Of a stretch of DNA of 21,207 nt, positions 3,201 to 20,376 are shown piece after piece. Location: IMG/VR virus record IMGVR_UViG_3300047323_000428, positions 1-21,207 of that record; one strand, written 5' to 3'. Every line of letters begins with the position of its first letter. Position 1 is the stretch's first letter. Under the pieces are notes generated by a model, which had not been told where the DNA came from, searched no databases, and was given only the letters and a program-made list of their open reading frames with translations. Source of the DNA: a virus (lineage: Duplodnaviria; Heunggongvirae; Uroviricota; Caudoviricetes). The translations under genes were made by a program, and so were the position numbers.

Positions 3201-3222
3201 TAATCGTCCAGTTGGACGATTA
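3201..3222. repeat. 22-bp inverted repeat TAATCGTCCA-GT-TGGACGATTA
   Basis: Perfect 10-bp arms, directly adjoining the AGTCA palindrome and 18 bp upstream of the tail fibre ATG. Confidence 0.85.
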
Positions 3223-3227
3223 TAACA
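3219..3227 (-). promoter_or_regulatory. Candidate sigma70 extended -10 promoter (TGTTATAAT) for the tail fibre gene
   Basis: Perfect TGnTATAAT on the minus strand in an AT-rich intergenic gap of a GC-rich genome, about 35 bp upstream of the ATG at 3183. Confidence 0.6.
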
Positions 3228-3245
3228 GTCAATTTTGACTGTTAT
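3222..3245. promoter_or_regulatory. AGTCA-N4-TGACT palindrome, copy 1 (ATAACAGTCA-ATTT-TGACTGTTAT)
   Basis: 10-bp perfect arms, intergenic, upstream of the tail fibre gene. Confidence 0.8.
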
Positions 3246-3249
3246 CCAG

Positions 3250-3441
3250 TCATTCGCGCTTCGGGTGGGTCGTCTTCACGGCCTGACAGGCGTGAACCCA
3301 TGCCTCGGTTTCGGCTGGCAGCGCAATGCCCTGCTCCATCAGAGCGGCGAAGCCCTTCATGATCGCGTCGAGCGCATCACCCACCGCCGGGTAATCGGCG
3401 GCGCGGCGAGGTGCGACGTCTACCTTGTGGTGCAGTTTCAT
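3250..3441 (-). CDS. Small tail-associated protein, 63 aa (possible fibre or tip assembly factor)
   Basis: MKLHHKVDVAPRRAADYPAVGDALDAIMKG...WVHACQAVKTTHPK. ATGA overlap with the upstream stop supports a start at 3441 rather than 3480. The R..YP..GD.LDA..K / VK..PK pattern is typical of small genes beside phage fibres. Confidence 0.75.
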   Translation of the reverse strand: MKLHHKVDVAPRRAADYPAVGDALDAIMKGFAALMEQGIALPAETEAWVHACQAVKTTHPKRE

Positions 3442-3833
3442 GCTTGCGTCACCTCGAACGTCGCTTCGACCATCGGCCACGCCCCAACGATGACCGTGTA
3501 GGTGCCCGGATGGCTGGCCGAAAGCTCGCAGGTGCTATCCGTGCATTCGTGCTCGACGCCTTCAAAGAGGATCGCGCACGGCACCGGCAGGTTCTTGAGC
3601 GTCATGCCGTCAAGCACCGTGGGGTTGGCCGGGCGCGGCACCACGGCGCCGCCCACCACATACTCGGTCGCGGGGTTGCCCTGCGCCCCATCGACGCGGC
3701 AGCCGCCCTCCGGGATATTCTGGACGTCGAGCATGTGGCCCGGCACGCTGCCCGTGTAGACGATGCGCCCCGTTGCGTCCGCCATCGTGAAGATGGCGTT
3801 GCCGGTGGTGTTGAAAAGTGGCGTGTCAAACAT
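3438..3833 (-). CDS. Hypothetical tail-associated protein, 131 aa
   Basis: MFDTPLFNTTG... start preceded by TAAGGA, which overlaps the tail tip stop codon. Beta-rich. Positioned directly after the gpJ-like gene. Confidence 0.75.
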   Translation of the reverse strand: MFDTPLFNTTGNAIFTMADATGRIVYTGSVPGHMLDVQNIPEGGCRVDGAQGNPATEYVVGGAVVPRPANPTVLDGMTLKNLPVPCAILFEGVEHECTDSTCELSASHPGTYTVIVGAWPMVEATFEVTQA

Positions 3834-3843
3834 GGTTTGATCC

Positions 3844-6800
3844 TTATCGCTTGAATTCGATGATGGCGCACGATGCTGCTGCGCCGCTGAAGTAGCCCGT
3901 GCTGCCCCCACTCACCTGAACGGTGTAGGTGCCCGCCGGCAGGTTCGTCACCACGCCCATGCCGCAGGCAGCCTGGTTGTAGGCGTTCGAGAACCGCGCA
4001 ATCTGCTGGCCGTTGATGCTCATCGAGAACGCCGAGCCGGTTCCCGCGATCAGCCCGACGAGCGTGCCGCCGGAGGACGTGTAGGTCACGCTGCCGCTGC
4101 CGATGTTCCAGGCCGCGCAGGTCGACACCGCGTTCGCGCCGATGTGTGCCGTATCGACCTGCAGATTGCCGATGTGGGCGGTGTTGATCTGGCCGTTGGC
4201 GATCTTCGCTGCCGTTACCTGCAAGTCGCCGATCATCGCGTTGTTGATCGAGGCGTCGCCGATGATCGCGTTGTTGATGATGACGCGCGGCTGGCCGTAG
4301 ACCGTGCCGATGGTGAACGGATAGACGCCCGGATAGCCCGGCAGGATCACCGCGAACGTGTCGGATCGCACGAGGAACTGCGAGACGACACCCTGCGTGG
4401 TCGGATAGCTCGACAGGCCAAAGCCCGCGACGTAGCCGTTGTTGTCGATCTTGACCGAATACTGCGCATTCAGGCCGTTGATGGACGACTGCTGCGTCTG
4501 GATGCTCGTCGTATGGCTGCCGACAGTCGACTGCAGGGTCGAGATTTGGCTCGCGTTCGCCTGGTCGGCCGCAACCCGCGCGTTCGTCTCGGTCTGCACG
4601 TTCGCATTGGTCGTCCCAAGCGACGCGTTGACGCTGTCGATGCGGGTCGAAAGCGCACTGTCAGCCGATGCACGCGCGGTCGTCTCGGTGCTGATCGCGG
4701 CCATTGCAGGCTGCACGATCGAGGCCGGGCGCCATTCGACGTCCGTGAAATACCAGCGGTTGGCGTCGCTCGTGCCGGTGATGTTGATGTTCACCCAGAG
4801 CTGGCACTTCGAGACGCCCGCCGGCACCGTGACCGTGCCCGCAATGCGCGTCCACTTGGTCGTCGCCGACTGCGTAGCGGCTGCCACCCAGCTCGAACTG
4901 CCAGAAGACGTCGTAAACATCGCGCCGATCGTGAAGGTCGCCGCTGCGACAGGCGAAGCCACGTAGCACTCGAAGTAGTGCTGCTGGCCGGGCGAGACGT
5001 CCACCGTGCGCAGGCTGACCGAATCGCGCACGTTCTGCTTGAACACGTTAAGCGACGGGGCGCCGGTCGGCACGTCCGAGTTCGTCTTGCTCACCACCGT
5101 GAGGCCCGCGCTCGTCCAGCCGGTGGTCGTGCCGTCGTTGGCCGTCGGATTCACGCACAGGTTGGTCGTGTCAACACCGAAGCCTGCGGCGACCGTGTTG
5201 ATCTGCGTGGCAAGCGCGCTGTCAGCGGCCGTGCGAGCGTTGGCTTCTGAGGTGATCGCAGCCGTGTTGCTGCCCGTATTGGCTGCGATCGTGTCGATGC
5301 GCGTCGACAGCGCGGCGTCAGCCGTCGTGCGCGCGCTCGTCTCGGTTTGAATGAGCGCGGCGTTGGTCGAGTTGGCCGACACCACCGTGTCGATGCGCTT
5401 GGCAAGGCTGTCGGTTGCCGACTGGCGCAACTGCGTCTCGCTGCTCACCGCCGCCGTGATGGAGTCGGTGAGTTGCGACTTGGCCGTGTTAATGCGCTCA
5501 TTGACCGAACCCAGCACCGACTGCGGCGCTGTGATAAGGCCGATGGTCGTTTGCAGGTCCGCGTTGAGTTGGCTGTCCTTGAGCACGCCCTCGGCGATCG
5601 CGTTCACGTCCATGTAGGTCGTGCGAACGTGAAACTCCTGCGACGGCACCGTCTCATCGAGCCCGAAAGCGTCATACGGGACGATGTGGAAGTAATAGTC
5701 CGAGTTGAACATCAGGCCCGTGAGGAGCGCCGATGTGTCCGGGCCGTCATAGGCGGGCACCGTGCTCACTTCCAGATCACCACTCCAGCGCAGGTAAATC
5801 TGCGCGCCGGCGTAGTCGGTGTCGTCCGTGTGGGCGAAGTTGACCTGGATGCGATCGAAGGAGGAGGACGTCGTGACGGCCGTAACCTGCGGGGGCGGGT
5901 TGTAGGCGTCCAGCACCGTCGGCTTGCCGATGTGGTTGAAAATGTCGCGCACGGCAATTTCAAACACGATGTGGCGGTGCTGGCCGTCGCCGACGTTTTT
6001 CTCGTAGGTGTAGATATACGAGTTGTCGGTGGTGTGCTCCGTGCGCAGGAGCTTTTGCGTCTTCGTGCCGTAGCCCGCCGCGTCATAGATGCGCACCTCG
6101 TAGTCGAGGAAGTGCGGATCGCGCGTGCCGGAGTCGGCACCGTTGGCCTCGCTGCCGAACTCGAAGGAGCTCGTGACCGAGTTGTAGTTCCAGTAGAGCT
6201 TGCAGTCGCGGCCAGCCCACACGAAGTCCACGCCCGTGACTTGCGCGACTTCGATGTTGCCGACATAGCCCACCACCAGGTGGGAGGCCACCGGTGCGTT
6301 GTCGAAGGACGCGCGCTTGCCCCAGATATCGAAGGCCACGACCTTGACCGTCAGCACGTCGCCCTTGTTCGCGCCGGGGATCACGTAGCTGGTGGCCGCC
6401 GGCACCGACTTCACGAGGTTGAAGCCACCGCTATTGACGGCCACATAGACGTCCGCGCCCGCGTAGGAGCCCACCTGCGGGGTGTTCCATGCCGCGCGCA
6501 CGTCCGAGAGGATCTGCGTGCCCGAGACGTAGGTTTCCTCGTAGACCGAGAGCGCCTGCACTTCCGAGATGGCCGCGGCTTCGGCGGGCAGCGCCGGCGC
6601 GATGAGTGTGCTCGTCACCTCGGCGTAGCTCGACAGATCGTAGACCGCCGCGTCGTATTGGATCGCCGTGATGTGCCGGTTCAGGCTCGAGCTCGCCAGC
6701 GTGATCGCCTTGATGCGAAACGGCTTCTTGACCTTGGCCGCTTCACCGAACATATAGTTGGTGAATTGCTCGGGCGCGTAGGACAGGGGCGTCGCAAGCG

Positions 6801-9519
6801 TGATCGTGTCGGTCGTGCCGGCCACCGTTGCCACGGTCGCATCCGTCACCACGTCCGTATCAAAGAGCGTGACCATCTGACCGGCGGCAAAGCCCGTCAC
6901 ATCATCAACGTAGACGCCATCGGGCACCGTCGAGAGAATCGTCGTCTCTTCGCCACCGGCCGCGCGAATGCGGTTCACCCGCGCGCTGGTATTCACGCCG
7001 CCTGCGATCTGCACGAAGTTGCCAATCACCGAGCGCACAATCGGGGTTGCACGCGCGACATAGTTCGTGAGCAGCAGCACCTTGTAGCTCTTGCCCGCTT
7101 CCATCGTGACGGGCTTGTCGAGCACAAGCGTCGTCGCAGTGGACGCAGCCCCGAGCCGTCCCGACTGTGCCCAGTTCGGCATGTCGTGCTGCACGAGCAC
7201 TACGTCGCCCGGCGTGCAGGCGATCGACTCCAGCGGCGCATCGAACTCGATGGTCTGGGTGAGATACCGGTTCAGGTTGAGCTGAAAGGCGCCTTCCTTG
7301 TAGGCGGCCGTGATGTTGTCGATGCCGTAAAGGGTGATCGCCGACGTGTTCTGCTTGTTGCCCGATTGCGCGAGCGTCGGGTCCACCACCTTCACGGTGT
7401 GGGCGCGGTTGTTGTCGTCGCGGTCGTAATAGGTGACGTCGATTTCGGTCGCACGGTCCTGCGTGCCGAGCCACGTCATCTTGAACGAGTCTTTGACGAT
7501 GTTGCCCATGCCGAACATCATCACGGGGTCGGCCGGCGCTTCAGTTGCCACGTAAAAGCGCGTGCCGACCTGAATTACCTGAGCGTGACCCACGCGCAGG
7601 ATCATGGCCGACGCATCCCAGAAGGTCATCGTCTGGTCAAGCGGCCCGTTCCAGGTGAGGCCGGCCGAGTCGCAATAGGCCGCCCACGCATAGATCGAGT
7701 CCATGTCGATGCGCGAAATGTCCAGGCCCGCGCCGTAGATCGGGTTGGTTGCTGCATCCAGCCAGATCCACGCGGGGTTCGACGAGGGCATCTGGCTTGT
7801 CATCGTCGTGCCGTCGGCGCGGCTGTAGACGGTGATGAGCTTGCCGCCGTGCTTAAAGGAGACGTTGGGCGCGGCCGAGAGCTGGTCGTCCATCTGCACA
7901 CGAATCGCCAGGAGCGCCGTGTGGTTGTAGGCGATCCGGTCGAACGTGATTTCGTTCAGGTCCGTGAGATAGGTGTCCGACTGCGCCGTGTCGCCTGTGT
8001 CGGTCGGAAAGGACGTGAGAACCTTGTTGTTGTCCACGTCATAGGTCTGGACCGCGTAATCCTTGTCGCGGCGGATACGGAAGTCGTATTTGCCCAGCGA
8101 AAGCTGTGGCGAATAGAAGCTGCGGCGCACCACCGAGCGCAAGTTGTCGGTGATGTGCAGGTCCGGCTGCACGCCCGTTTCCTGCAACGTCGTGGAGATC
8201 GCGGTAGTCGTGCGCGCGCTCACCCAGTTGGAAGCCGGCCAGGCCGAGAGCGGGCGGCCGACATAGCCGCCGAACTTGTTGTAGGCGACCGTCGTGTCGT
8301 CTTGGCTCGCGGTGCCAGTGCTGTCACGTTGAGCGCGCAGCCCGTCGACGATCATCGCGTCGGCCGCAGCGGGATCGGTCGGATAGTCGGTGACGACCGT
8401 GCCCTTGACCGTCGGGTAGACCTTCAGGTTGACGTAGGCCGTCTCGACGTCCGAACTGACGTAGCTCCAGTCGGTTTCCTTCGTGCTGGTGGACGGCCGA
8501 TACTGGACGTTGATGTTGACCGAGTTGGGCTTAAAGGAGCCGCTCTTGGAGTCGACCGAATACAGGCCCGAAGGACAGTTGAAGTCCAGGCGCACCTGCT
8601 CGACTTCCGACATGGTGCTGGCGGTAATCCACGAGCCGTCGGCGGGCAGCTTCAGTTGCTTGCTGACCGGGCTCACCACCTTGTTGAACCAGTCGATCGG
8701 CTCTTGCGTGGCGTAGCCCAGGCGCGTTTGCACCGTGACGTTGGAAAACTCGCTGACCGGGCGCCCATTCAACTGAATGTCGGAGATCGAGGCGATCGGC
8801 CCCTCTCCGGCATTGATGAGCATGTAGAGGAACTGGTTGTTGCCGTTGCCCGAGGCGTCCGAGCCGCTCGTGTTGGCCTCGGTGTAGAGGCCGATGATGT
8901 TGCCGGCCGTGCGGAAGTTCGTGCCGTAGACCACCGGCACCGGGATGCCTTCCTGCGACGTGTTCTTTGCCCCGTCCGCGCCATACGAGGGCGAGTTGGA
9001 CATATCCGAACTCGCCGTGGGCAGAACCGGCGGCAGCAGCGCATTGAGCAGCAGCGAGCCCGCAACCGACACGGCCATCGAGGCGGCCGCGCTCGCGGCG
9101 ATCATGCCGCCCGTGGTGACGCCGGCAGCCACACCGGTTGCCGACCCGTAAGCGGCAGCAGCCGCGCCGCCCGTGTAGGCCGCGGCAATCGCAATGGCGA
9201 TCATGCCGATGATGCGGAAGATGCCCTTGCCGCCACCACCACGCGGAATCGGGCACATCACGACATAGTCGTCGGGCTGCAGGTAGGTTTTGGCGAGCGC
9301 AGAGTGCGCGACGATGCCGCCATTGACCGAGATGACGTAATCTTCAGCGAAGACCTTCGGCAGATAAGCCGCGAGCGACTTGTTCTTCCGATACGCCCAC
9401 TTGTCCACTTCGATCGCGCGAAATGGCTCGAACGGATTGGTGATCCGCTTGGCCGTGATGAACTTCTTTTCGCGGGGCGCCTTACGGGCTTTGCGTGGCG
9501 TGGCTGTCGCTGTATTCAT
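3844..9519 (-). CDS. Tail tip / central fibre protein (lambda gpJ-like) with fused N-terminal gpI-like region, about 1891 aa
   Basis: N-terminal Ubl-like segment ending CPIPRGGGG, then Ala/Gly hydrophobic helices, EGIPVPVVYG, GEGPI, SNPAW, EFDAPLESIACTPGDVV, FN3-like domains, coiled-coil repeats, YSVKIDNNGYVAGFGL (DUF1983-like) and 10-aa beta-helix-type repeats. Start at 9519 (MNTATA) is preferred to 9552 but is not certain. Confidence 0.93.
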   Translation of the reverse strand: MNTATATPRKARKAPREKKFITAKRITNPFEPFRAIEVDKWAYRKNKSLAAYLPKVFAEDYVISVNGGIVAHSALAKTYLQPDDYVVMCPIPRGGGGKGIFRIIGMIAIAIAAAYTGGAAAAAYGSATGVAAGVTTGGMIAASAAASMAVSVAGSLLLNALLPPVLPTASSDMSNSPSYGADGAKNTSQEGIPVPVVYGTNFRTAGNIIGLYTEANTSGSDASGNGNNQFLYMLINAGEGPIASISDIQLNGRPVSEFSNVTVQTRLGYATQEPIDWFNKVVSPVSKQLKLPADGSWITASTMSEVEQVRLDFNCPSGLYSVDSKSGSFKPNSVNINVQYRPSTSTKETDWSYVSSDVETAYVNLKVYPTVKGTVVTDYPTDPAAADAMIVDGLRAQRDSTGTASQDDTTVAYNKFGGYVGRPLSAWPASNWVSARTTTAISTTLQETGVQPDLHITDNLRSVVRRSFYSPQLSLGKYDFRIRRDKDYAVQTYDVDNNKVLTSFPTDTGDTAQSDTYLTDLNEITFDRIAYNHTALLAIRVQMDDQLSAAPNVSFKHGGKLITVYSRADGTTMTSQMPSSNPAWIWLDAATNPIYGAGLDISRIDMDSIYAWAAYCDSAGLTWNGPLDQTMTFWDASAMILRVGHAQVIQVGTRFYVATEAPADPVMMFGMGNIVKDSFKMTWLGTQDRATEIDVTYYDRDDNNRAHTVKVVDPTLAQSGNKQNTSAITLYGIDNITAAYKEGAFQLNLNRYLTQTIEFDAPLESIACTPGDVVLVQHDMPNWAQSGRLGAASTATTLVLDKPVTMEAGKSYKVLLLTNYVARATPIVRSVIGNFVQIAGGVNTSARVNRIRAAGGEETTILSTVPDGVYVDDVTGFAAGQMVTLFDTDVVTDATVATVAGTTDTITLATPLSYAPEQFTNYMFGEAAKVKKPFRIKAITLASSSLNRHITAIQYDAAVYDLSSYAEVTSTLIAPALPAEAAAISEVQALSVYEETYVSGTQILSDVRAAWNTPQVGSYAGADVYVAVNSGGFNLVKSVPAATSYVIPGANKGDVLTVKVVAFDIWGKRASFDNAPVASHLVVGYVGNIEVAQVTGVDFVWAGRDCKLYWNYNSVTSSFEFGSEANGADSGTRDPHFLDYEVRIYDAAGYGTKTQKLLRTEHTTDNSYIYTYEKNVGDGQHRHIVFEIAVRDIFNHIGKPTVLDAYNPPPQVTAVTTSSSFDRIQVNFAHTDDTDYAGAQIYLRWSGDLEVSTVPAYDGPDTSALLTGLMFNSDYYFHIVPYDAFGLDETVPSQEFHVRTTYMDVNAIAEGVLKDSQLNADLQTTIGLITAPQSVLGSVNERINTAKSQLTDSITAAVSSETQLRQSATDSLAKRIDTVVSANSTNAALIQTETSARTTADAALSTRIDTIAANTGSNTAAITSEANARTAADSALATQINTVAAGFGVDTTNLCVNPTANDGTTTGWTSAGLTVVSKTNSDVPTGAPSLNVFKQNVRDSVSLRTVDVSPGQQHYFECYVASPVAAATFTIGAMFTTSSGSSSWVAAATQSATTKWTRIAGTVTVPAGVSKCQLWVNINITGTSDANRWYFTDVEWRPASIVQPAMAAISTETTARASADSALSTRIDSVNASLGTTNANVQTETNARVAADQANASQISTLQSTVGSHTTSIQTQQSSINGLNAQYSVKIDNNGYVAGFGLSSYPTTQGVVSQFLVRSDTFAVILPGYPGVYPFTIGTVYGQPRVIINNAIIGDASINNAMIGDLQVTAAKIANGQINTAHIGNLQVDTAHIGANAVSTCAAWNIGSGSVTYTSSGGTLVGLIAGTGSAFSMSINGQQIARFSNAYNQAACGMGVVTNLPAGTYTVQVSGGSTGYFSGAAASCAIIEFKR
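4495..5439 (-). repeat. Five 32-aa coiled-coil repeats (ETxARxxADxALSTRIDT...) in the tail tip protein, split by an inserted domain
   Basis: Glu codons recur exactly 96 bp apart at 5439/5343/5247 and again at 4686/4590. Confidence 0.85.
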
Positions 9520-9877
9520 AAAATCCGACGATCCGATGCTTCCAGTGGTCAAGGCGCTCCGTCACCACCCCACCGGATTGCTCCCAGGTGTGGATGAAGC
9601 GATAGTCAGGAATGACTATTCCGCAGTGCGCAATGAAGCGCCCTGTTTTGAACATGACGAGCGCGCCTTCCTTCGGATAATCCAGGCGGCGCCAGAATTC
9701 GCGGGAGCCCACCATCAGCGCGTGAATCATCCCCGCGTCTTCCGGTGCGCCGTAGTCAGGGACTTTGACGCCCTGGTCCCGCTCGATGATGTAGCGGCAC
9801 AGCCCGTAGCAGTCGAAACTGTCGGGGCCGCGGCCGCCACGCTCGAAGGGAATCCCGATCAGTTCCGTGTTCGTCAT
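9482..9877 (-). CDS. NlpC/P60 (C40) cysteine peptidase, tail assembly protein K-like without JAB domain, 131 aa
   Basis: GIPFERGGRGPDSFDCYGL (catalytic Cys), HCGI and FIHT (His residues). Lies between the gpL-like and gpJ-like genes. Confidence 0.9.
   Translation of the reverse strand: MTNTELIGIPFERGGRGPDSFDCYGLCRYIIERDQGVKVPDYGAPEDAGMIHALMVGSREFWRRLDYPKEGALVMFKTGRFIAHCGIVIPDYRFIHTWEQSGGVVTERLDHWKHRIVGFYEYSDSHATQSP
9602..9619. promoter_or_regulatory. AGTCA-N4-TGACT palindrome, copy 2, intragenic (ATAGTCA-GGAA-TGACTAT)
   Basis: 7-bp arms inside the NlpC/P60 CDS, about 85-100 bp upstream of the tail tip start. Confidence 0.6.
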
Positions 9878-9884
9878 GGTCGCA

Positions 9885-9900
9885 TAGTCATTCTTGACTG
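9885..9900. promoter_or_regulatory. AGTCA-N4-TGACT palindrome, copy 3 (TAGTCA-TTCT-TGACTG)
   Basis: Fills the 28-bp gap between the gpL-like stop and the NlpC/P60 start. Confidence 0.75.
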
Positions 9901-9905
9901 TTATT

Positions 9906-10541
9906 TTAGCGATAAATGGAGCCCGAGGGAACCAATGCCGGCATTCCTCCGAAGTTCACCACGTTCGCGTGCGCGCGGCAGCCGAGCGTGCCGTCGAGCG
10001 TGTGGTCGCAACTGGTGAGCGAGCCCGAGTAGCGGCACGTGTTGGCGTCCTTGAACACCCACGGGCAAAAGTCGCGCCGCTGCGTGCGCTTCGGAAACTG
10101 CTTGGTGAGCGCGCTCTCGGCGCCAAGCGTGAAGCTGACTTCGTAGTTGGCGGCGGTCGCGGCCGTCACCTGAAAATACTCGGCCACTTCCGGGTCGCCA
10201 TCGAGGTTGTTCGCCGCGTAGACGCTGATCTTCACATTGAAGCCCACGCCGCCCGCATAGTCGTTCATCTTCGAGAGCACGGCCTGCGTGTAGTCGGCAA
10301 ACGAGAGCGAGATCGAGGGCGTCTCGCCCGAGGCGGAGGTCAGTTCGATCGAGAACTGCACGGCGGTGTAGGTCTGCCCCTGCACCACTACGTCTTCGGT
10401 GTTGTTCACATAGCGCAGCGTCTCGAGGATGGCGCCCGTGGTCGGGTCCGGCACGTCGATCGACAAGAGCGCCAGGTAGGCGACGTCGCTCGCAATGCGG
10501 TTTTTCTCGATAACCGAGGCGACTGAAAGTTTGTTTGCCAT
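9906..10541 (-). CDS. Minor tail protein L-like (tail tip hub), 211 aa
   Basis: LRYVNNTEDVVVQGQTYTAVQF and a C-terminal four-Cys motif CPW...CRY...CDHT...GCRAH...NFGGMP like gpL. RBS GGAGG. Confidence 0.9.
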   Translation of the reverse strand: MANKLSVASVIEKNRIASDVAYLALLSIDVPDPTTGAILETLRYVNNTEDVVVQGQTYTAVQFSIELTSASGETPSISLSFADYTQAVLSKMNDYAGGVGFNVKISVYAANNLDGDPEVAEYFQVTAATAANYEVSFTLGAESALTKQFPKRTQRRDFCPWVFKDANTCRYSGSLTSCDHTLDGTLGCRAHANVVNFGGMPALVPSGSIYR

Positions 10542-10907: not shown

Positions 10908-10918
10908 CGCGTCTTTCC

Positions 10919-13900: not shown

Positions 13901-15739
13901 GATCGACTGCGCGCGCTCATCGTTGACGTCCGCCCCTTCGTAATACTTCTGCTGGTTCTGCTTCTTTTGCGTGAAGGCGAGAAGCTGCGAGTAATGGTCC
14001 TGCAGCCACTTCACCGGGTTCGCCATCGCCAGGTCAGCGTCGATCAGGCCCGCGTGCTTGGCCTGCTGCTTCATCTGGCGCGGATCGTTAGACGTCACGG
14101 CGCCCGTATTGAGCAGCCCCGAGTCCAGGAAGATTTGCGTGGCCTGGTCGGTCATCTGCTTGCCCAGCGCGTATTGCTGGAACATTTTGAAGGACGTGCC
14201 CACGCGCGACACACCCGCGCCACCGCCGCCCATGCCGCCGCCCATCGTCTTGTTCTGGTCGACGATGCTCATGAGGTTGATGAGGCCGTCATCGGACAGG
14301 CGCGAAGCGCCCGTGCCCATCATGCGCAGGACGTTTTCCATGTCCTGCATCGTGACCTTGCCGCCGGTGGCCGTGCTGATCTTCTGCACGAGGTCCATCG
14401 TGCCCTTGGCCGCCGCCGGGTCATACACCTGCTGGCGCGTCTCCACCACCCCGTAGAGGTTGCGGATCGTGTTCTGCATGTCGCCGTGCGAGTAGCCGAG
14501 CGTTTGCAGGTTGTTGGCCGCGCGCACCGCCGTTTGCAGCGTCGCGTCGATGATCTGCTGGTTGTTCGAGCCCACCGAGCCGATCGCAGCCATGCGCGCT
14601 TTGACGGCGTCGAGTTGCGAGAGGAAGGCGTTGGTCTTCGTGAGGTCGAACGCCTTGCTCATGAACTCCTGGTTCTGCTGGTCGCTCATGCCAAGCGAGT
14701 GCAGGCCCACCTGGGCCGTTTGCATCTGCGCGGCGTCGTCAATGCTGCCCCGGATGCCCTTCTCGATCTTCATGCCGGCCCATACGCCCGCCATCGCTTT
14801 GAGCGAGTCGGTGAGCATGTCGGCCTGGCCGCGCACGTTGGTGAAGTTCTGCCCCGCGTTGCGCGTCGCAATTGCCTGCGCGTTCGTGGCGGCGGTGTTG
14901 GCAGAGGTTGCGCGCGTGAGCGCGTCAGTGGAAAGGGTGTTCTTGTCGGTGGCGGCCGCCAGCGTGCGGTTAGCCGTGACGAGCGACGTGACCGTGCCAG
15001 CGAGCGTCGAGACGGCCTTTTCCAGCCGCGTCATCGCGTTGGCAAGCGCGGTGTTGCTCGTGTTGGCCTTGCCTGCGGCCGTGCCCTGTGCGTTGGTGCC
15101 CTTGGCGGCTGCGTTGGCGCTGTTGCCGAGCTGTGCGTTGGCGAGCGCCGCACGCATTGCGGCATTGGGCGTCGAAAGGAGCGCCGCGGTCGCCTTGCCT
15201 GCGGAGGCAGCGACACCGTTGTTGGCCGCGTTGACCTGGGCGCCGGCGGTCTGTGCTGCAGCGCCCGCTTGTTGCAGCCCCTCACGCGCGCGAAGGAGCG
15301 CGGGGACCGACTTGTCAAAATTTGCCGCAAGCGTGCCGGCCGCGGCTGCCGTTTGCTCGATGCCCTTGTTCGAGGCGGCCGCAGCTTCCCCGACCGCACC
15401 GATGTTCTTGCCTGCCTTCGCGGCGATATCGCCCGCTTGCTGCAGGCCGCCGGCGAGTGCGCTCATCGACTGAGCGACCGCCTGCACCGACTTTTGGACG
15501 GGGTTGATTTCGGCGTTCGCGTTCTTGAAGCCCGAGGCGAAGTCCGAGAGCTTGCCGGCGATCTGCTCCATCGTCTTCGCAGCCGATGCGAGCGGCGCAT
15601 CAACGTTCTTGGCGGAGCTGGCGAGATCCTTCAGGCCCGTATTGAGCGCATCGGACGTGCTCTTTGCCTGCTTGGTCTTCAGCGTGAAGCCGCTGTCGTC
15701 CAGGGTCAGTGTTACTTTAATCTCGCCACCAATCGCCAT
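10919..15739 (-). CDS. Tape measure protein, 1606 aa
   Basis: Long Ala-rich helical protein after the chaperone genes. N-terminus MAIGGEIKVTLTLDDSGF, hydrophobic mid-section at about 13290-13590, C-terminal FADGG...YANGG...GEG..NEAYVPL motif. RBS GAAGGTG. Confidence 0.95.
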   Translation of the reverse strand: MAIGGEIKVTLTLDDSGFTLKTKQAKSTSDALNTGLKDLASSAKNVDAPLASAAKTMEQIAGKLSDFASGFKNANAEINPVQKSVQAVAQSMSALAGGLQQAGDIAAKAGKNIGAVGEAAAASNKGIEQTAAAAGTLAANFDKSVPALLRAREGLQQAGAAAQTAGAQVNAANNGVAASAGKATAALLSTPNAAMRAALANAQLGNSANAAAKGTNAQGTAAGKANTSNTALANAMTRLEKAVSTLAGTVTSLVTANRTLAAATDKNTLSTDALTRATSANTAATNAQAIATRNAGQNFTNVRGQADMLTDSLKAMAGVWAGMKIEKGIRGSIDDAAQMQTAQVGLHSLGMSDQQNQEFMSKAFDLTKTNAFLSQLDAVKARMAAIGSVGSNNQQIIDATLQTAVRAANNLQTLGYSHGDMQNTIRNLYGVVETRQQVYDPAAAKGTMDLVQKISTATGGKVTMQDMENVLRMMGTGASRLSDDGLINLMSIVDQNKTMGGGMGGGGAGVSRVGTSFKMFQQYALGKQMTDQATQIFLDSGLLNTGAVTSNDPRQMKQQAKHAGLIDADLAMANPVKWLQDHYSQLLAFTQKKQNQQKYYEGADVNDERAQSIAIARLLAALGIQTTAATAMSQSIDPHSAQRINEQREFVKQNKGVDAVNDEVMKNYDGAVQGFKASVKDLGIIIGNSVLPQVTKLVGYMRDFLVAAREFAQNNPMVTQLSVIGAAVGGAVLAIRGFLSITGTIGGVFKALGAGLGGMGAGAATAAASTTAATATMGGAFAGLVARVGAFVAETGALFMRAIPYVGWLLVAWDLAGIIGNLEVGGHKVSDWFVHWFDSILLNAGTFWTDMKKIFSDIASWKFDPKQWSGVVGQMVAGEAAAGNDSGKIHAKVNKDGSWWDGVKKAFTGGTGATFEDAKAQAAERERLFNGGYSVRGDAGQMGPQRPVNVQHAPAAAELGDADPAIKNALTSGGHKTREFEDPFVKFIEQLKAKGSKLSSDIDALLTRQPKGMEALRRDATEDFTAKWLGGDFDKAHDPRNRKWKKADGSLDTNNADVKAAIDQIAKDKELEEQKKALVFANERLASTENDLQAAQEAAADDGAAKQTREMRALERELARAEERLGTGTKAWAEWTKRKDQALANRAGADLLNFSSKFKQSDAETMQNLLPFASQRTTAKFDSQTSKDLAQYSLDMKTQQDASAAAIAAETDPQKRADMQKQATALQLQAEQEFNQHLAVVAAERKRLLESPMDGLVRSWQDTYAQMQQAEASWATNAIDMIMEFVKTGKLNIGKLAESMALDVLKIKLQETFSTPLKAGLDALTSGINKLVFPNASTAAGQASTASDITGAGSAAYAFAMPAATQQATDALKSFTQQGVGQATAAMGQQVTGLATATTTQATTTSALGSLATAAYGAASALAAVGGGSGLGGLGSSLGGLFGASNTGSAAGYSFTMPNSSSISGSGALFGTSAGMGLGAFADGGIMTSRGVAQLRKYANGGIANSPQLALYGEGSMNEAYVPLPDGRSIPVTIKTDGTAASGDGAASSGSTPTITVNVINQTGQSVGAQQQGSTRFDGKQMILDVVLTSAQSPGSFRDGLRSAMK

Positions 15740-15740
15740 A

Positions 15741-16459
15741 TCACACCTTCGAGCCTATCGTTTGTTCAGCCATAGATTTCAATGACGCAAAGCCCTCCAC
15801 GTCCCGCTGCTCGTCCTGCCGTTTGACGACTTCCGCACTCATCTTGGCGACGTTGCCGACTTCGATAATCAGATTCTTTCGATAGTCGGAAACCACCGGC
15901 CCTTCCTGCTGAGCGACCGCGGCGATGGTGAGCGCGCGCATGTCTTTCTGGGCCGAGATTCGATCGACGCTTTCGTGGAACAACCAGAAGCGGCGCATCG
16001 TCATGCCAAGGAGCTTTTCGTCGTCGTAGTGGTAGAAGTGCGCGACCCGGCAAAAGAGGAACCCGAAGTCCAGTTCCTCTAATGCCGGCTTGCTCAGTTT
16101 CCCGAGGGTTGCTCCGCGTCGGCCGCAGCCGCTTGTTCCTTCTGCTGCTCAACTGCCTGTTCGACCTTCTCGTCGTCCTCGCCCTTGATGAAGGCGGTGA
16201 TCTTGTTGAGCGTCTCCACCGAGCAGCCCATCAGGAGCTTCTTGGGTGCATCGGGGATCGAGCGCACGATCATGTCGACCGCTGCCTCGACGTGGTCAGC
16301 CACCGTTGCTTCTTGGTTGGCGACGAGCTTTTGCGCGATGCGCGAGGTTTCGATGAAGTTGGCGACGGTCATCGCGGGAACCTTGTAGGTCTTCCCGCCG
16401 AGCACCAGTTCGCGTTGTTCCTGCTCGCCCAGGGCGTCCAGGTTCAGAATCTTGGTCAT
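15741..16459 (-). CDS. Tail assembly chaperone G-T fusion (about 239 aa) produced by -1 frameshift
   Basis: The -1 frame is open from the slippery site through KLSKPALEELDFGFLFCRVAHFYHY...MTMRRFWLF to TGA at 15741. The track's 87-aa ORF (15741..16004) is the C-terminal part of this frame. Confidence 0.85.
16094..16459 (-). CDS. Tail assembly chaperone (gpG-like), 121 aa
   Basis: MTKILNLDAL...LVLGGKTYKVPAMTV. RBS AGGAG. Lies between the major tail and tape measure genes. Confidence 0.9.
   Translation of the reverse strand: MTKILNLDALGEQEQRELVLGGKTYKVPAMTVANFIETSRIAQKLVANQEATVADHVEAAVDMIVRSIPDAPKKLLMGCSVETLNKITAFIKGEDDEKVEQAVEQQKEQAAAADAEQPSGN
16097..16103 (-). other. Programmed -1 ribosomal frameshift heptamer G GGA AAC
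   Basis: X XXY YYZ in the correct phase immediately before the chaperone stop (TCG GGA AAC TGA). Analogous to lambda G/T GGGAAAG. Confidence 0.88.
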
Positions 16460-16477
16460 TGCTTTGCTCCTGTAGAC

Positions 16478-16500
16478 AGCCCCGCCATCGAGGCGGGGCT
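16478..16500. terminator. GC-rich hairpin AGCCCCGCC-ATCGA-GGCGGGGCT (terminator-like, no U-tract)
   Basis: 9-bp perfect stem downstream of the major tail gene and just upstream of the chaperone RBS. It lacks a poly-U on the coding strand, so it may be a pause, attenuation or mRNA-stability element. Confidence 0.45.
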
Positions 16501-16510
16501 TGGGTATGAT

Positions 16511-16532
16511 GGATAGTCATTTTTGACTATCC
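16511..16532. promoter_or_regulatory. AGTCA-N4-TGACT palindrome, copy 4 (GGATAGTCA-TTTT-TGACTATCC)
   Basis: 9-bp perfect arms, intergenic, 12 bp after the major tail stop. Confidence 0.8.
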
Positions 16533-16544
16533 TCCTAGTGACGC

Positions 16545-17066
16545 TTACGGCGTGACCGGGGCGACGCCGACGCTGAACAGCTTCTTCGTGACCGGATCGG
16601 GGTAGCCCGTGAAGTCCACGCTGTAGAGGCGTTCCTTCTCGACGTCATACGAGAAGTCGAGCGCGCCCGAGGTTGCGGCCAGCGGAATCACGAAGTCTTC
16701 CGAGTAGTCGTTGGCCGGCTTCGACACCGGGTGCAGACGCAGCTCCTTGGCGATCGAGAGCAAGTCCACGCCGATACCCACGCCCACGTCGACGCTCTTT
16801 TCGCCGCCCGCACCCGTGACGAGCGTGGCGCCCGGCATGATTGCGACCAGATTTTCCAGCGTCGTTTCCGCCAGCGGCACCTTCACCGACACGTCACGGC
16901 TCATGATGAGTTCGTTGACGGTGGTTTTGCCGAACTGGTCGATGTTGACCTTGTGCGTGTCGGTCTTCACCGACACCTGCACGCCACCCTGCGTGTAGCC
17001 GAGGTCTTTGCCATCGTAAGAGATGGTGCAGACGCCCAGCTTCACGTTTTTAGTATCGCTTGCCAT
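16545..17066 (-). CDS. Major tail (tube) protein, 173 aa
   Basis: KNVKLGVCTISYDGKDLGYTQGGVQV...VKVPLAETTLENL...LRLHP...YSVDFTGYPD. Strong RBS AAAGGAG. Directly precedes the chaperone and tape measure genes. Confidence 0.9.
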   Translation of the reverse strand: MASDTKNVKLGVCTISYDGKDLGYTQGGVQVSVKTDTHKVNIDQFGKTTVNELIMSRDVSVKVPLAETTLENLVAIMPGATLVTGAGGEKSVDVGVGIGVDLLSIAKELRLHPVSKPANDYSEDFVIPLAATSGALDFSYDVEKERLYSVDFTGYPDPVTKKLFSVGVAPVTP

Positions 17067-17091
17067 TCAAACTCCTTTGCAAAGAGGTTTT

Positions 17092-17111
17092 AACAGTCAT
17101 TTTTGACTGTT
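17092..17111. promoter_or_regulatory. AGTCA-N4-TGACT palindrome, copy 5 (AACAGTCA-TTTT-TGACTGTT)
   Basis: 8-bp perfect arms, intergenic, upstream of the major tail gene. Confidence 0.8.
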
Positions 17112-17115
17112 GCCG

Positions 17116-17144
17116 AATATACCACAGTGGACCTGTGGAGTCAC
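17116..17144 (-). promoter_or_regulatory. Candidate sigma70 promoter GTGACT-17 bp-TATATT (with TGn extension) for the major tail gene
   Basis: -35-like GTGACT (17144-17139), 17-bp spacer, TGG-TATATT (17124-17116). The predicted start site falls at the edge of palindrome copy 5. Confidence 0.5.
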
Positions 17145-17614
17145 GAGATTGAGAGGCGCACGGCGGCTGCCACCGCCTCCATCACGTGTCTTTCTGCGTC
17201 CTTGGCCGCGCGCGTCATGTAGCCGCCGCCAACGACATTGCGACCGCCATCCTTTTCTTCGGAAAGCGGCCCGCGTTTCTTGGGCCCGCCCGTGGGCTCC
17301 ATGTGCTCATGCACTTCGTAGGCGTAGTCGCCCACCGTCTTGCCCGGCCGCTCGGGAACCGGCATCGACTGGTCGACATACACCTCCATGCCCTTTCGCG
17401 CGAACTGGCCGAGTTCATTGCGACCGCCGCCCGTCTCGCGCACCTTGATCGCTTTTTCGAGGTTGCCCTCATCCACCGGCGCATACTCGCGGGCGTATTC
17501 CGCAACCGTCTCGGCTTCCTTGCGCATGGCGACAATCGCGCCCGCGACCGCTTTCACGCCGACCTGCTCGAGCGCCACCGTCAGGTTTTCCAGACCGATG
17601 ATTTCGACTGCCAT
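17141..17614 (-). CDS. HK97 gp10-like tail completion (neck) protein, 157 aa
   Basis: AREYAPVDEGNLEKAI, YAYEVHE and GGGYMTRAA are the APVD.G.L, YA..VHE and YL.RA hallmarks of this family. TGATG coupling with the upstream gene. Confidence 0.85.
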   Translation of the reverse strand: MAVEIIGLENLTVALEQVGVKAVAGAIVAMRKEAETVAEYAREYAPVDEGNLEKAIKVRETGGGRNELGQFARKGMEVYVDQSMPVPERPGKTVGDYAYEVHEHMEPTGGPKKRGPLSEEKDGGRNVVGGGYMTRAAKDAERHVMEAVAAAVRLSIS

Positions 17615-18015
17615 CAGATCACCTCCTGCACGAAGCAGACGTCCAGGTAGACGTTGAACTCGATGAGGCTGCCGCCGGTGAGCGGAAAGACCGCCGGCAG
17701 TGCTTCGGGCCGGCAGTGGTTGAAGGTCATTCGCGTCGCGCCGTCCTCCAGCACCGTGCCGGGATCGAGCGTGAGCGCCGCGAGCGTCTTGTCCATCAGC
17801 GCGCTCGCCTTCAGATACGTGGCTTCCCGTGCGATCACCTGCACGCGCGTCCTGTAGTAGCCCGGCAGTTCGTAGTCGACCTTTGTGCCGTTGATATCGT
17901 TGCGCACGAGCACGGCCGAAGTCGCCCCCGCGGGGAACATATAGGCGAAGAGATTGGTGCCCATCTTGCCGACGCCCTGTTCGACAAGCCGTTGCACCAG
18001 CGGCAGCACGTTCAT
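17614..18015 (-). CDS. Tail terminator protein, 133 aa
   Basis: G.NLF...FP, RVQVIAR...Y..A..LMD..L..L, terminal F.V.L. Size and pattern fit tail terminator ('minor capsid 3'-type) proteins. Confidence 0.75.
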   Translation of the reverse strand: MNVLPLVQRLVEQGVGKMGTNLFAYMFPAGATSAVLVRNDINGTKVDYELPGYYRTRVQVIAREATYLKASALMDKTLAALTLDPGTVLEDGATRMTFNHCRPEALPAVFPLTGGSLIEFNVYLDVCFVQEVI

Positions 18016-18360
18016 TTATGCACTCCAGTGAATGACGGACGCCTCGATGTGATCGAGCCGGCCGGTGAGGTCAAAGCGCTGCGTGAGCGCGGCGATTTTC
18101 ACGCGCTGGCTGGCAACCGTTGCCACCGTGTCGATGAGCGCGGCCGTCTTGGGCGAGAGCAGGATCATGCCGTCGGCCTCGAGCTCGAAGGCGCCGCCGT
18201 GCGAGGCCGTCTCGACGGTGGACACGGGCGTCTTGGTTGAGCGCGTGGTGAGCGACACCACACTGCAGCGCTCGCGCACCAGCAGCGGCGTCTTGGGTTG
18301 CCCGTAGACGTCCGTGCCGGTGGCGATCTCCAGCAGGATCGGCAGAGTCGGATTAAACAT
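18016..18360 (-). CDS. Head closure (stopper) protein, 114 aa
   Basis: TDVYGQP near the N-terminus, beta-rich, C-terminal RFDLTGRLDHIEA. Located in the neck module. Confidence 0.72.
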   Translation of the reverse strand: MFNPTLPILLEIATGTDVYGQPKTPLLVRERCSVVSLTTRSTKTPVSTVETASHGGAFELEADGMILLSPKTAALIDTVATVASQRVKIAALTQRFDLTGRLDHIEASVIHWSA

Positions 18361-18979
18361 GCGCCTCCAGGCGGGTGTTGGGGTGAAAAAGGCGGCCGCG
18401 CTGCTCGGGCAGATCCTTGAGCAGCACGCGCTGGGCGTCGCCGTCGGGCGTCACGACCTGAATCGCGTCATACCCCAGGCGCACCGCTTCGGCGACCGCC
18501 GCATCTACGGCCGTTTGCACGGCGAACTGGCGCACGGTGGTTTTCACGATCGTCTCGGCGGGGAACTTGCGCCCGAGCGAGTCTTGCGCCTTGAACTCGA
18601 CGCCGCCGATCTTCTGCTGCACGAGCTGGCCCATGCCGCCGCTGGCGCCTTTCACGAGCGAGGCCACGCCGGTCTGTCCGACGCGCATCGCCCGCAGGAC
18701 GCCCTTGATGTTCTGCGCGAGCGTCACCTTCAAGGCATCGAGCGCGTAACCGACGCGAGACGCGTCCGCGCCCTGCTCGCTCGCGTAGCTCGTCATCTCG
18801 TCTTCGGCGCGCGTGAGAAACGCGTGCGCAAGCCGGTGCGCTTCCCTTTCCGCGCTCTTCAGTGCAGCGGGCGAGAGTTGCGCGCCCGGTGCGACTGCAG
18901 CGAGGTAGATGCCCTTAAAGGCGAAGATCAGCGCTTCGTAATCCGCGCCGATCCGGTGGGTGAGGTCGTCGTAGATCAT
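18353..18979 (-). CDS. Hypothetical neck-region protein with minor-capsid/MuF-like C-terminus, 208 aa
   Basis: ATGA overlap with the adaptor stop supports the MIYDDL start at 18979. F..QDSLGRKF...VKT..R and LFHPNTR resemble minor capsid D..GR.W and HPNCR motifs. Confidence 0.6.
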   Translation of the reverse strand: MIYDDLTHRIGADYEALIFAFKGIYLAAVAPGAQLSPAALKSAEREAHRLAHAFLTRAEDEMTSYASEQGADASRVGYALDALKVTLAQNIKGVLRAMRVGQTGVASLVKGASGGMGQLVQQKIGGVEFKAQDSLGRKFPAETIVKTTVRQFAVQTAVDAAVAEAVRLGYDAIQVVTPDGDAQRVLLKDLPEQRGRLFHPNTRLEAHV

Positions 18980-19848
18980 GTCCGGGCGAGGCGCTTGTTC
19001 ATCTGCACGAAGTAGGACACATAGGAGAGCGCGCGCTTGCAGCACGGCAGATCCAGCGGCTTCGTCGAGCGATAGCTCTGGTGCGTCTGCCCCACCGTGT
19101 CGGAGGTGATGCCCGCCAGGCGCTTGTCGCCCATCGGGTCGCCCGTGAGGATGAAGTCGGCTTCCGCGACCTGAGCCTTTCGCAGCGCGCCCTTGAACCG
19201 CTCCGGCAGCGCATTGAACTGCTCGGCGGAGAGGAGCTCCAGATTGCCGTCGAACATGAAAAGCCCGTTCGTGGCGACATACTTGGACTGGTAGACACCT
19301 TCGGGCACGAAGTTCAGGCTGTCCTGGCCGAAGTTGATGTTGGAATTGAGCAGGTAGTAGGAGAGCTTCACGAGGTGCCAGCGTGCCTCGATCATGGCCG
19401 CATACCGCTCCTCGTCGGCTGCCGCATCCCAGCCAGGCGTGCCCGGAATCTCGGCGGCCATCAACTGCGCCTGAGCGTAGGTCTGGAAGCTGTTCACGCC
19501 GGGGATGAGCACCGAAACGGGCTCAAGGCCATAGGCGTAGGTGAGCACCACCTGGTTGCCGCTCTCCAGCGTGAGGTGCAGCTCCAGCAGGCGCGCGGCG
19601 CGTGTGGGGATCGTGTGGACGTCCATATCGGCCTGGCTGTGCCCGGCGATCTGGTTCAAACTCGCCGGCACCACGATCTGGGCTTCTTTGGTGCCCATCG
19701 TGAATCCTTCCAGCCGCGTGCTTGCCTGCAGTTCGGCGTTGTTCTCGTCGAGGATGCGGTAGTCGATCGCATCGACGTCCAGGGAGACGCCCTTTGCGAC
19801 CAGTGGAATCACGCACTCGACCGTGGTGCCTGCGAGAAAGAAGTCCAT
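18976..19848 (-). CDS. Head-tail adaptor/connector with an extra N-terminal beta domain, 290 aa
   Basis: The C-terminal half (NSFQTYAQA, AMIEARWHL, KAQVAEA, GITSDTVG, ALSYVSYF) resembles DnaT-like/gp15-type adaptors. Position follows the capsid genes. Confidence 0.7.
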   Translation of the reverse strand: MDFFLAGTTVECVIPLVAKGVSLDVDAIDYRILDENNAELQASTRLEGFTMGTKEAQIVVPASLNQIAGHSQADMDVHTIPTRAARLLELHLTLESGNQVVLTYAYGLEPVSVLIPGVNSFQTYAQAQLMAAEIPGTPGWDAAADEERYAAMIEARWHLVKLSYYLLNSNINFGQDSLNFVPEGVYQSKYVATNGLFMFDGNLELLSAEQFNALPERFKGALRKAQVAEADFILTGDPMGDKRLAGITSDTVGQTHQSYRSTKPLDLPCCKRALSYVSYFVQMNKRLART

Positions 19849-19851
19849 GCG

Positions 19852-20295
19852 TTACTCGCTCGCCTCGTCGAATGCGCCGCCCGTGGCCTTCACGATCGCA
19901 TCGATCAGGCTGCGAATCGAGTTGCCCTTGATGCCCATCGTCTCGGCAATCTCACGCAAGCCGCCGATGCCCTTTTCGTCGGCGATCTGGGCGAGGTCCG
20001 CTTCGTTGTAGACAACAGCAGCGACAGCGGCCGGTGCCGGTGCGGCTTGAACCGGGGCTTGCTCGGTCACGACCGTGGTGGCCGAAGTCGAGACGGCCGG
20101 CATGTGCATCGAGTCCAGAAGGAACTGCGAGACGCTCGGGTTGGTGCCGTCTTCGTATTCGCAGCGATAGACCGCGGCGATGCGGCACGCGTCCTTGTGC
20201 GAGACGTCAGCGGTCGAGACGCCGTCAACGAAGAACACTGCGCCCATTTGCGCGGTGTAGTGCTGCATGCCAGGGTCGAGAAGTCGAAGTTTCAT
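19852..20295 (-). CDS. Hypothetical post-capsid protein, 147 aa, with a C-terminal small helical (HeH/Rho-N-like) module
   Basis: The MKLRLLDPG start has RBS AAAGGA and lies downstream of the terminator, so it is preferred to 20358. Ala/Pro linker, then ADLAQIADEKGIGGLREIAETMGIKGNSIRSLIDAIVK. Confidence 0.75.
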   Translation of the reverse strand: MKLRLLDPGMQHYTAQMGAVFFVDGVSTADVSHKDACRIAAVYRCEYEDGTNPSVSQFLLDSMHMPAVSTSATTVVTEQAPVQAAPAPAAVAAVVYNEADLAQIADEKGIGGLREIAETMGIKGNSIRSLIDAIVKATGGAFDEASE

Positions 20296-20317
20296 TGCCT
20301 TGAATTCCTTTGATGTG

Positions 20318-20345
20318 AAAAAGGGCGGGCACATGGCCCGCCCTT
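20318..20345 (-). terminator. Rho-independent terminator after the major capsid gene
   Basis: AAGGGCGGGC-CATGT-GCCCGCCC followed by TTTTT on the coding strand. Confidence 0.8.
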
Positions 20346-20349
20346 CTAT

Positions 20350-20369
20350 CTTAGTCATTTTTGACTAAG
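20350..20369. promoter_or_regulatory. AGTCA-N4-TGACT palindrome, copy 6 (CTTAGTCA-TTTT-TGACTAAG)
   Basis: 8-bp perfect arms between the capsid stop (20377) and the terminator. Confidence 0.8.
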
Positions 20370-20376
20370 GCGTCGC

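Follow-up and report, generated by a model that had tools for sequence, protein, structure and literature searches.

The stretch analysed here, called the window below, is the first 21,207 nt of a Caudoviricetes record in IMG/VR (IMGVR_UViG_3300047323_000428), whose whole sequence of 111,080 bp is referred to as G000. The window contains six exact copies of the inverted repeat AGTCA-N4-TGACT (the dyad). We give a probability of about 0.68 to the reading, made from sequence comparison, that the dyad acts as double-stranded DNA, being a genome-wide operator for a dimeric XRE-type repressor that the phage itself encodes. Phages of ~110 kb related to SSU5, nickie and RHEph10 are common in soil and plant-associated metagenomes, and IMG/VR holds at least 346 capsid relatives. 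The hosts are Proteobacteria, probably Burkholderiaceae. Literature searches found no published description of the AGTCA-N4-TGACT motif and no account of gene control in these phages.

Two data sets are used for comparison. The five-genome set is made up of G000 with G001, G002, G003 and G005, complete relatives in IMG/VR that measure 108 to 113 kb. The wider-family survey takes 80 loci around the capsid gene and 58 around the major tail gene, also from IMG/VR, and counts copies with up to one mismatch.

Distribution and conservation of the dyad

The window copies, named by the start of the 14-bp core, lie at 3227-3240, 9604-9617, 9886-9899, 16515-16528, 17095-17108 and 20353-20366, and the first-pass annotation had located all six correctly. 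Shuffled sequence gives 0.03 copies by chance, none of 100 shuffles reaches six, and a search allowing two mismatches adds a single match to the window, at chance level. All genes of the window are on the minus strand, on which the copies read (A)AY-AGTCA-AAAA/AAAT/AGAA/TTCC-TGACT-RT. The annotation had described 5-bp arms and a 4-nt spacer as invariant; this is so for the arms and for the spacer length, whereas the spacer sequence on the coding strand is AAAA in three copies and AAAT, TTCC and AGAA in the others. Five copies are in short intergenic gaps, as had been noted: before the tail-fibre gene, between two minor-tail genes, to both sides of the major tail gene and downstream of the major head gene. 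The sixth (9604) is inside an NlpC/P60-like gene. By PHROGs, the neighbouring genes encode the tail fibre, a J-like central fibre, minor tail proteins, the major tail protein, a tail completion protein and the major head protein.

In the whole record the dyad is by far the most over-represented, with 30 exact copies observed against 0.05 expected, and the reversed control sequence is found in no copy. Non-coding DNA makes up 15% of the genome but contains 29 of the 30 exact copies (P = 3e-23), beside which stand 17 intergenic copies with one mismatch. The usual placement is 1 to 30 nt past the stop codon of the preceding gene. The dyad marks nearly every minus-strand gene block and not the virion operon in particular, so the earlier statement that it punctuates the virion operon was too narrow. 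The same annotation had held the repeat to be a selected, non-random regulatory signal and had proposed a scan of the full record and of related genomes for enrichment; intergenic enrichment and conservation in relatives were both found. Seven relatives carry 14 to 34 copies, namely 17, 25, 34 and 29 exact ones in the four complete relatives and 19, 14 and 24 in three others (G006, G007 and G008). When dyads are ranked de novo, this one comes out on top in six of six genomes checked (G000, G001, G002, G003, G005 and G006). In the wider family it occurs within 120 nt after the capsid stop codon at 63 of 79 loci and before the capsid gene at 65 of 79, and it follows the major tail gene at 34 of 46 loci and precedes it at 41 of 57 (at most one mismatch). 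Orthologous positions are kept across phages whose capsids are only 62 to 96% identical.

Dispersed, intergenic and palindromic copies are also what would be seen if the palindrome were mobile, or a product of mutation, and regulated nothing, be it an element like repetitive extragenic palindromes or miniature inverted-repeat transposable elements, a product of quasi-palindrome template switching, or a target of restriction and modification. We regard this as very improbable. Such an element is not expected to hold orthologous positions over that range of capsid identity, nor to keep the fixed register with promoter hexamers described below. The in-gene copy at 9604, also present in G005 and G002, is maintained despite its cost in codons: it is read ATA GTC ATT CCT GAC TAT, and ATA is only 1.8% of the Ile codons in the genome. 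For a restriction target, over-representation is the opposite of expectation.

The cultured phages JGB6, BUCTxx99, nickie and SSU5 have no dyad. Over its whole record, the Salmonella phage SSU5 has dispersed palindromes of its own, AAACA-N3-TGTTT (14 copies) overlapping AACAA-N1-TTGTT (13), and TAAGT-N4-ACTTA (8); these may be an analogous system with another regulator.

Half-site behaviour and the candidate regulator

The five genomes together have 135 exact dyads and 86 with one mismatch (73 of these intergenic); the corresponding counts for a control palindrome of the same composition are 6 and 1. Copies with two mismatches are at background (133 against 118 for the control), and among these 133 only 4 are compensatory, about as many as chance gives. 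Single mismatches are mirror-symmetric between the arms (ACTCA/TGAGT, AATCA/TGATT, AGTAA/TTACT) and show no preference for changes compatible with G.U pairing on the transcribed strand. Across the wider family, the change of T14 to G is seen 19 times and that of A1 to C three times, never both in one copy, and none of 153 further sites has a compensatory arm change. RHEph10 has 19 copies of a variant dyad, A[AG]TCA-N4-TGA[CT]T, in which 9 mixed and 10 matched arm combinations are what independent arms would give. Each lineage has its own 4-nt centre (AAAC; GCAC/ACGC; ATAT; CCGG), with the arms unchanged.

Arms that are fixed and uncompensated, mismatches that mirror each other and a centre that changes with lineage argue for two half-sites read by a symmetric protein. 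They also argue against a stem kept for its pairing and against a loop read by an RNA-binding protein. The roles that the first-pass annotation offered include a site bound by a phage regulator, and to that extent it anticipated the reading preferred here; its RNA-hairpin version is unlikely, the arms being uncompensated. The dyad does have a direction. At 91 oriented sites its asymmetry follows the direction of the genes, with A at -3 in 62, A at -2 in 71 and a central A in 74, a test that is thin because few sites adjoin minority-strand genes.

The candidate for the symmetric protein is an XRE-type helix-turn-helix (HTH) gene at 86,983-87,516 of G000, given as 142 aa in databases. When all called genes were compared with nine relatives, it was the sole gene with a presence profile equal to that of the dyad, the RHEph10 variant included. 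G006, G007 and G008 have both dyad and regulator, and no orthologue was detected in nickie, JGB6, BUCTxx99 or SSU5 (in the last by tblastn). The protein matches Pfam HTH_3 with E = 1.3e-4 (22.4 bits), and a Caballeronia homologue is named XRE family regulator in UniRef. Compared with the PDB, its sequence gives only chance-level matches, to bacteriophytochromes, and its similarity to solved proteins is not significant. In an AlphaFold2 model (mean predicted local distance difference test score, pLDDT, of 74), the N-terminal domain superposes on 434 Cro with a template modelling (TM) score of 0.81 and a root mean square deviation of 1.5 A, and on P22 c2 with TM 0.82 to 0.84; 434 repressor, SinR, C.AhdI and C.BclI are the other structural matches.

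The protein is predicted to dimerise. Its homodimer model scores 0.60, against 0.00 for the best of three controls. Among proteins of solved structure, 20 of 30 same-chain pairs and 1 of 23 single chains reach that mark, counts that are only rough because our own alignment was used. Between runs, contact agreement is at least 93% and partner pLDDT at least 82. The modelled interface consists of the C-terminal helices, leaving the HTH free.

Position links gene and dyad as well. Four exact dyads lie just upstream of the XRE gene in G000 (86,505 to 86,960), and dyad clusters are also found upstream of its orthologues in G005, G002 and G003. A Paraburkholderia metagenome-assembled genome has a locus with five exact and three near dyads in 20 kb, four of them at most 650 bp upstream of the XRE orthologue. 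The plus-strand block that carries the regulator and ParA has no exact dyad between 86,960 and 97,759, which fits a repressor of lytic functions.

Regulator and dyad co-occur and co-vary over 12 genomes or loci. A relative of 40.7% G+C (G009; loci L266-L271) has a diverged regulator homologue and no AGTCA dyad; its top dyad is AGTAA-N4-TTACT, with 13 copies, mostly AGTAAG[CT]GCTTACT followed by AATAAT. The recognition helix reads NQNMVSFIVRG in G009 against KPNMLSMIRQG, and SNMVTMIKKG in RHEph10. We take the G009 repeat as a candidate heteroimmune operator dialect, on the evidence of these sequences. Both arms have changed at all sites together with the protein, which points to a switch of specificity and not to hairpin compensation.

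The 68-aa gene at 86,581-86,784 is unlikely to encode the binding protein, having a homologue only in G005 and no Pfam match. Distant alphaproteobacterial homologues of the HTH (36 to 42% identity, over the HTH only) come without a dyad and are probably other XRE proteins.

Some further repeats were seen. Pairs of one exact and one near dyad, with starts 22 to 33 bp apart and the spacer sometimes inverted, occur in G000 (49519/49552, 65265/65292, 107008/107030) and in G005 (96134/96156, 54553/54580), an arrangement suggesting that two dimers bind cooperatively at some of the blocks. At 36045 of G000 there is a variant changed in both arms, TGTCA-TACG-TGACA, with one-mismatch copies nearby at 35621 and 36329. 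G010, a relative in which no homologue of the regulator was detected, carries AGTCAGAATTGACT three times in identical form (at 9415, 63992 and 92400), perhaps as part of a longer repeat.

Register with promoters

The best sigma-70-type promoter was scored in silico around each of the 91 oriented sites. At 32 of them the -10 begins at dyad position +13 to +15: TATAAT then shares its first T with the end of the arm, and the spacer of the promoter is taken up by the dyad. At about 12 the -10 is at +36 and the dyad abuts the -35, and at about 9 the -10 is at -13 to -17, which puts the dyad at about +1. At least half of all sites are in register with a promoter. A TTGACT on the antisense strand was rejected as a -35 hexamer, there being no -10 at a usable spacing, and a T enrichment at -15/-16 was rejected as a -35 or a third half-site, since it is the T tract of upstream terminators.

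The tail-fibre gene provides a spacer-type example. Its sigma-70-like promoter at 3219-3248 (minus strand, as are all features of the window given here) was found by promoter scan as TGGATA-18-TATAAT with the TG of an extended -10, and the dyad lies between the hexamers as part of a perfect 24-bp palindrome, ATAAC-AGTCA-AAAT-TGACT-GTTAT (3222-3245, core 3227-3240), which fills the spacer 44 nt upstream of the tail-fibre start and folds as RNA at -11.9 kcal/mol. Directly after the -10, at the predicted 5' end of the fibre mRNA, is a small hairpin, CGTCCA-AC-TGGACG (3203-3216), retained with changes in G005 as CGGCCAACCTGGACG.

At the major tail gene the dyad stands at about +1. The promoter scan gives GTGACT-17-TATATT with TG at 17116-17144, a promoter kept in G005, G002 and G003, and the 20-bp palindrome AAC-AGTCA-AAAA-TGACT-GTT (17092-17111) begins 7 nt after the -10 hexamer, before the gene. 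The leader that follows, CCTCTTTGCAAAGGAG (17067-17094), is identical in four genomes (this phage, G005, G002 and G003) and contains a palindrome, TTTGCAAA, able to pair with the AAGGAG Shine-Dalgarno sequence; this may be a translational control hairpin. The copy at 9886-9899 separates the stop codon of an L-like minor tail gene from the NlpC/P60-like start, has a -10-like TAAAAT ending 3 nt upstream, and is flanked by bases non-complementary at +-1.

No promoter is detectable at the copies 9604 and 16515. The first (9604-9617) is contained in the minor tail gene of NlpC/P60 type (9482-9877), and the J-like gene starts 52 nt further on. The second belongs to a 22-bp palindrome, GGAT-AGTCA-AAAA-TGACT-ATCC (16511-16532), 8 nt past the major-tail stop codon, and is followed by a G+C-rich 9-bp hairpin at 16478-16500 that, in a 76-nt fold, resembles a terminator stem with no T tract.

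The junction after the capsid gene (window 20300-20376; loci L123-L202) has the same layout family-wide: stop codon, TTGnnn as -35, 3 nt, dyad, TAGAAT as -10, a GC hairpin with T tract, Shine-Dalgarno sequence and ATG. The promoter is canonical (TTGnnn-17-TAGAAT), with the dyad in its 17-bp spacer and the hairpin 2 to 5 nt past the -10. Transcripts starting there would begin inside the terminator stem and would therefore escape the terminator. In the present phage this promoter has decayed to GCGACG-17-TAAGAT, while dyad and terminator are retained: the 20-bp palindrome CTT-AGTCA-AAAA-TGACT-AAG (20350-20369) lies 10 nt past the major-head stop codon, and 2 nt after it comes the intrinsic terminator GGGCGGGCC-ATGT-GCCCGCCC followed by TTTTT (20318-20343). 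So compact an arrangement of stop codon, -35, dyad, -10 and terminator stem is a design of interest in itself.

Taken with the half-site behaviour, these registers suggest how the operator reading would work. A homodimer of the XRE-type protein, similar to 434 Cro and cI, would bind the dyad with one recognition helix per AGTCA half-site, and the 4-bp centre would not be read base by base. Some 30 exact and 17 near operators would thus be set in short gaps between the lytic minus-strand gene blocks. At most of them the dyad would sit in a 17-bp sigma-70-type spacer or abut a -35, and there a bound dimer would exclude RNA polymerase; at some, as before the major tail gene, it would sit at about +1. 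The promoter-less sites (those behind the capsid and major tail genes and the one within the NlpC/P60 gene) might act as roadblocks to elongation or reinforce terminator-promoter junctions, as stoperators do. One protein would in this way silence nearly the whole lytic programme in a plasmid-like prophage state.

The register data can be turned round, with the dyad as an activator site for middle and late promoters that replaces or helps the -35, in the manner of P1 Lpa or of a class II activator. The commonest register, in which a good -10 follows the dyad with no gap (32 of 91), would suit such a site, many of these promoters have weak -35 hexamers, and the second register (-10 at +36) places the centre of the dyad ~42 bp upstream of the likely start, the classical class II position. 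Activator sites keep one register, however, and here there are at least three, including +1 and promoter-less places. The spacer-type sites of the wider family have the canonical TTGnnn-17-TAGAAT, which should fire unaided, and a protein bound in the spacer would occlude the polymerase. Dyads also stand in early, replication and virion blocks alike while missing from the plus-strand block of regulator and ParA, and the candidate protein resembles repressors of the Cro/cI type. On balance we judge activation quite unlikely and repression the probable mode.

Flank complementarity at head and tail genes

The first-pass annotation had reported that the outer flanks differ between copies and yet remain complementary, and this holds for 5 of 6 window copies at +-1, 6 of 6 at +-2 and 4 of 6 at +-3. 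It had taken such covarying flanks to favour a stem-loop over an operator, a preference that is not upheld: the arms are never compensated, and genome-wide the flank pairing does not exceed that of shuffles. Over 117 intergenic copies of the five genomes, complementary flanks number 49 against 45.4 in within-genome shuffles at +-1, 56 against 59.5 at +-2 and 41 against 35.3 at +-3. Genome-wide flank covariation was therefore rejected, the shuffles not being exceeded. In the wider family, flank complementarity is limited to +-1 and +-2, where lineage-wide dialects are found (TA/TA against AY/RT).

The covariation across relatives that the annotation had asked about does appear at the head/tail positions, defined as those after and before the capsid gene and after and before the major tail gene. 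At these four positions in the five genomes, the flank pairs are paired in 17/20, 17/20 and 14/20, with several pair types, and the covariation score is 0.253 against 0.097 in shuffles, a value that 0 of 500 shuffles reach. The flanks extend the palindrome by at least 3 bp at 10 of 15 head/tail sites and at 4 of 76 elsewhere (P = 4e-7). In G001 to G003, which were not the source of the hypothesis, the corresponding counts are 6 of 9 and 3 of 36 (P = 7e-4). Complementary flanks are real but narrow, being enriched only at the head/tail sites of this subclade. The same sites are less consensus-like in their flanks, for which a stronger operator is no obvious explanation.

These flanks count in favour of the dyad as an RNA stem-loop with an A-rich loop, setting late-gene stoichiometry through mRNA stability, processing or antitermination, be it as its main function or, in the head/tail copies, as a second one. 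As RNA, five of the six copies in the window form stable folds (-9 to -14 kcal/mol, z-scores -3.6 to -5.2); the head/tail flank pairs covary, extend the palindrome and are more complementary while being further from consensus; both the capsid and the major-tail cistron are followed by the palindrome and then a GC hairpin; and the element is oriented with transcription. Other features count against a stem-loop. The arms show no compensation in 135 exact, 86 near and 153 further sites and are independent in RHEph10, the would-be loop varies between lineages, and flank pairing is absent genome-wide and confined to +-1 and +-2 in the wider family. G.U pairs are not in excess over A.C near-pairs in the head/tail flanks, and in an Rfam scan no family reaches its gathering score anywhere in the window. 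Position is also a difficulty, since the left flank of 17095 falls between the -10 and the likely start site and would be absent from the RNA of that promoter, and since a dyad at 21389 lies upstream of the -35. In lambda nut, boxB function depends on the loop sequence, and there are two copies per genome. The dyad could likewise form a 5-bp stem with a purine-rich loop in an intergenic transcript, but its loop varies by lineage, its stem is invariant and uncompensated, and its copies number ~30 against two. We think it rather improbable that the element works as RNA in this way.

A combined use is conceivable, if doubtful. The copies bracketing the capsid and major tail genes, extended to 8 to 10-bp perfect palindromes with covarying outer bases, would serve as repressor sites in the prophage as DNA, and as RNA would be terminator-adjacent 3' untranslated-region stem-loops by which the two most abundant late messages are adjusted in stability or read-through. 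Neutral template switching is another possible source of the extension. Quasi-palindrome mutagenesis by template switching within inverted repeats is established, and flank extension at promoter-free sites could arise in this manner, which would suit a palindrome without a regulatory role; against this, other sites free of promoter overlap lack flank extension (3 of 35 reach 3 bp).

Several observations weigh against the repressor-operator reading. The head/tail flanks of this subclade are complementary yet off-consensus (GGAT/ATCC, CTT/AAG, GAT/ATC and GTA/TAC against AAY), which a model of independent half-sites does not predict. The direction of the dyad with transcription (5' AAY flank, central A) is not explained by a symmetric dimer alone. 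Copies 16515 and 20353 have no usable promoter, each being placed after a stop codon and ahead of a hairpin that resembles a terminator. In about two thirds of the spacer-type promoters the -35 hexamer matches at fewer than 4 of 6 positions, which bears on the choice between repression and activation. As to the protein, the HTH_3 match of 22.4 bits is just below the curated cut-off of 23, and the Foldseek E-values are weak (~1e-2), so that the fold is assigned from TM-scores to HTH domains of small size.

Comparison with known systems

The operators of 434 and P22 repressor and Cro (XRE/HTH_3) are the closest in architecture: they too are 14 bp long with conserved outer arms and a variable 4-bp centre, overlap promoters, and are bound by a dimer with a Cro/cI-type HTH, which here is predicted, the N-terminal domain of the candidate superposing on 434 Cro, 434 repressor and P22 c2. 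They differ in arm sequence and in number, with two triplets in one immunity region against ~30 to 47 sites over 111 kb here. P1 is likewise a plasmid-like prophage in which one regulator, C1, acts at many transcription units; the operators of C1 are asymmetric 17-mers. The model for activation would be P1 Lpa, whose sites have a 9-bp inverted repeat, are confined to 11 late promoters and are activating (PMC10695390), whereas the dyad is found at nearly all lytic blocks and in several registers (+13, +36, -13).

In genome-wide deployment the nearest parallel is the stoperators of Cluster A mycobacteriophages (L5 gp71 type), which number 20 to 30 or more per genome and lie in short intergenic gaps, oriented with transcription and mostly outside promoters (PMC6550527). 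They are asymmetric, 13 to 14 bp long and bound non-cooperatively, and motif and repressor co-vary between lineages (PMC6550527). Both systems would have genome-wide, transcription-oriented sites for one phage repressor (here a candidate), some in promoters and some not. Unlike stoperators, the present sites form a strict 5-N4-5 dyad with a predicted dimer, at least half are embedded in promoters, and the hosts are proteobacterial. The C-boxes of restriction-modification controller proteins are pairs of GACT-N3-AGTC, with affinity tuned by the spacer sequence (PMC2647307). They resemble the dyad, on the present reading, in being bound by small XRE-type HTH dimers, C.AhdI and C.BclI being among the best structural matches of the candidate, and in their GACT/AGTC tetranucleotides; their half-sites are opposite in direction and differently spaced, and they serve a single autoregulatory locus and not a genome-wide set.

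If the reading holds, one 14-bp dyad and a named candidate repressor make a switch open to direct test in the whole lineage. Immunity groups would be predictable from the arms (AGTCA, ARTCA or AGTAA), and the system would be a proteobacterial, dyad-symmetric counterpart to the mycobacteriophage stoperators.

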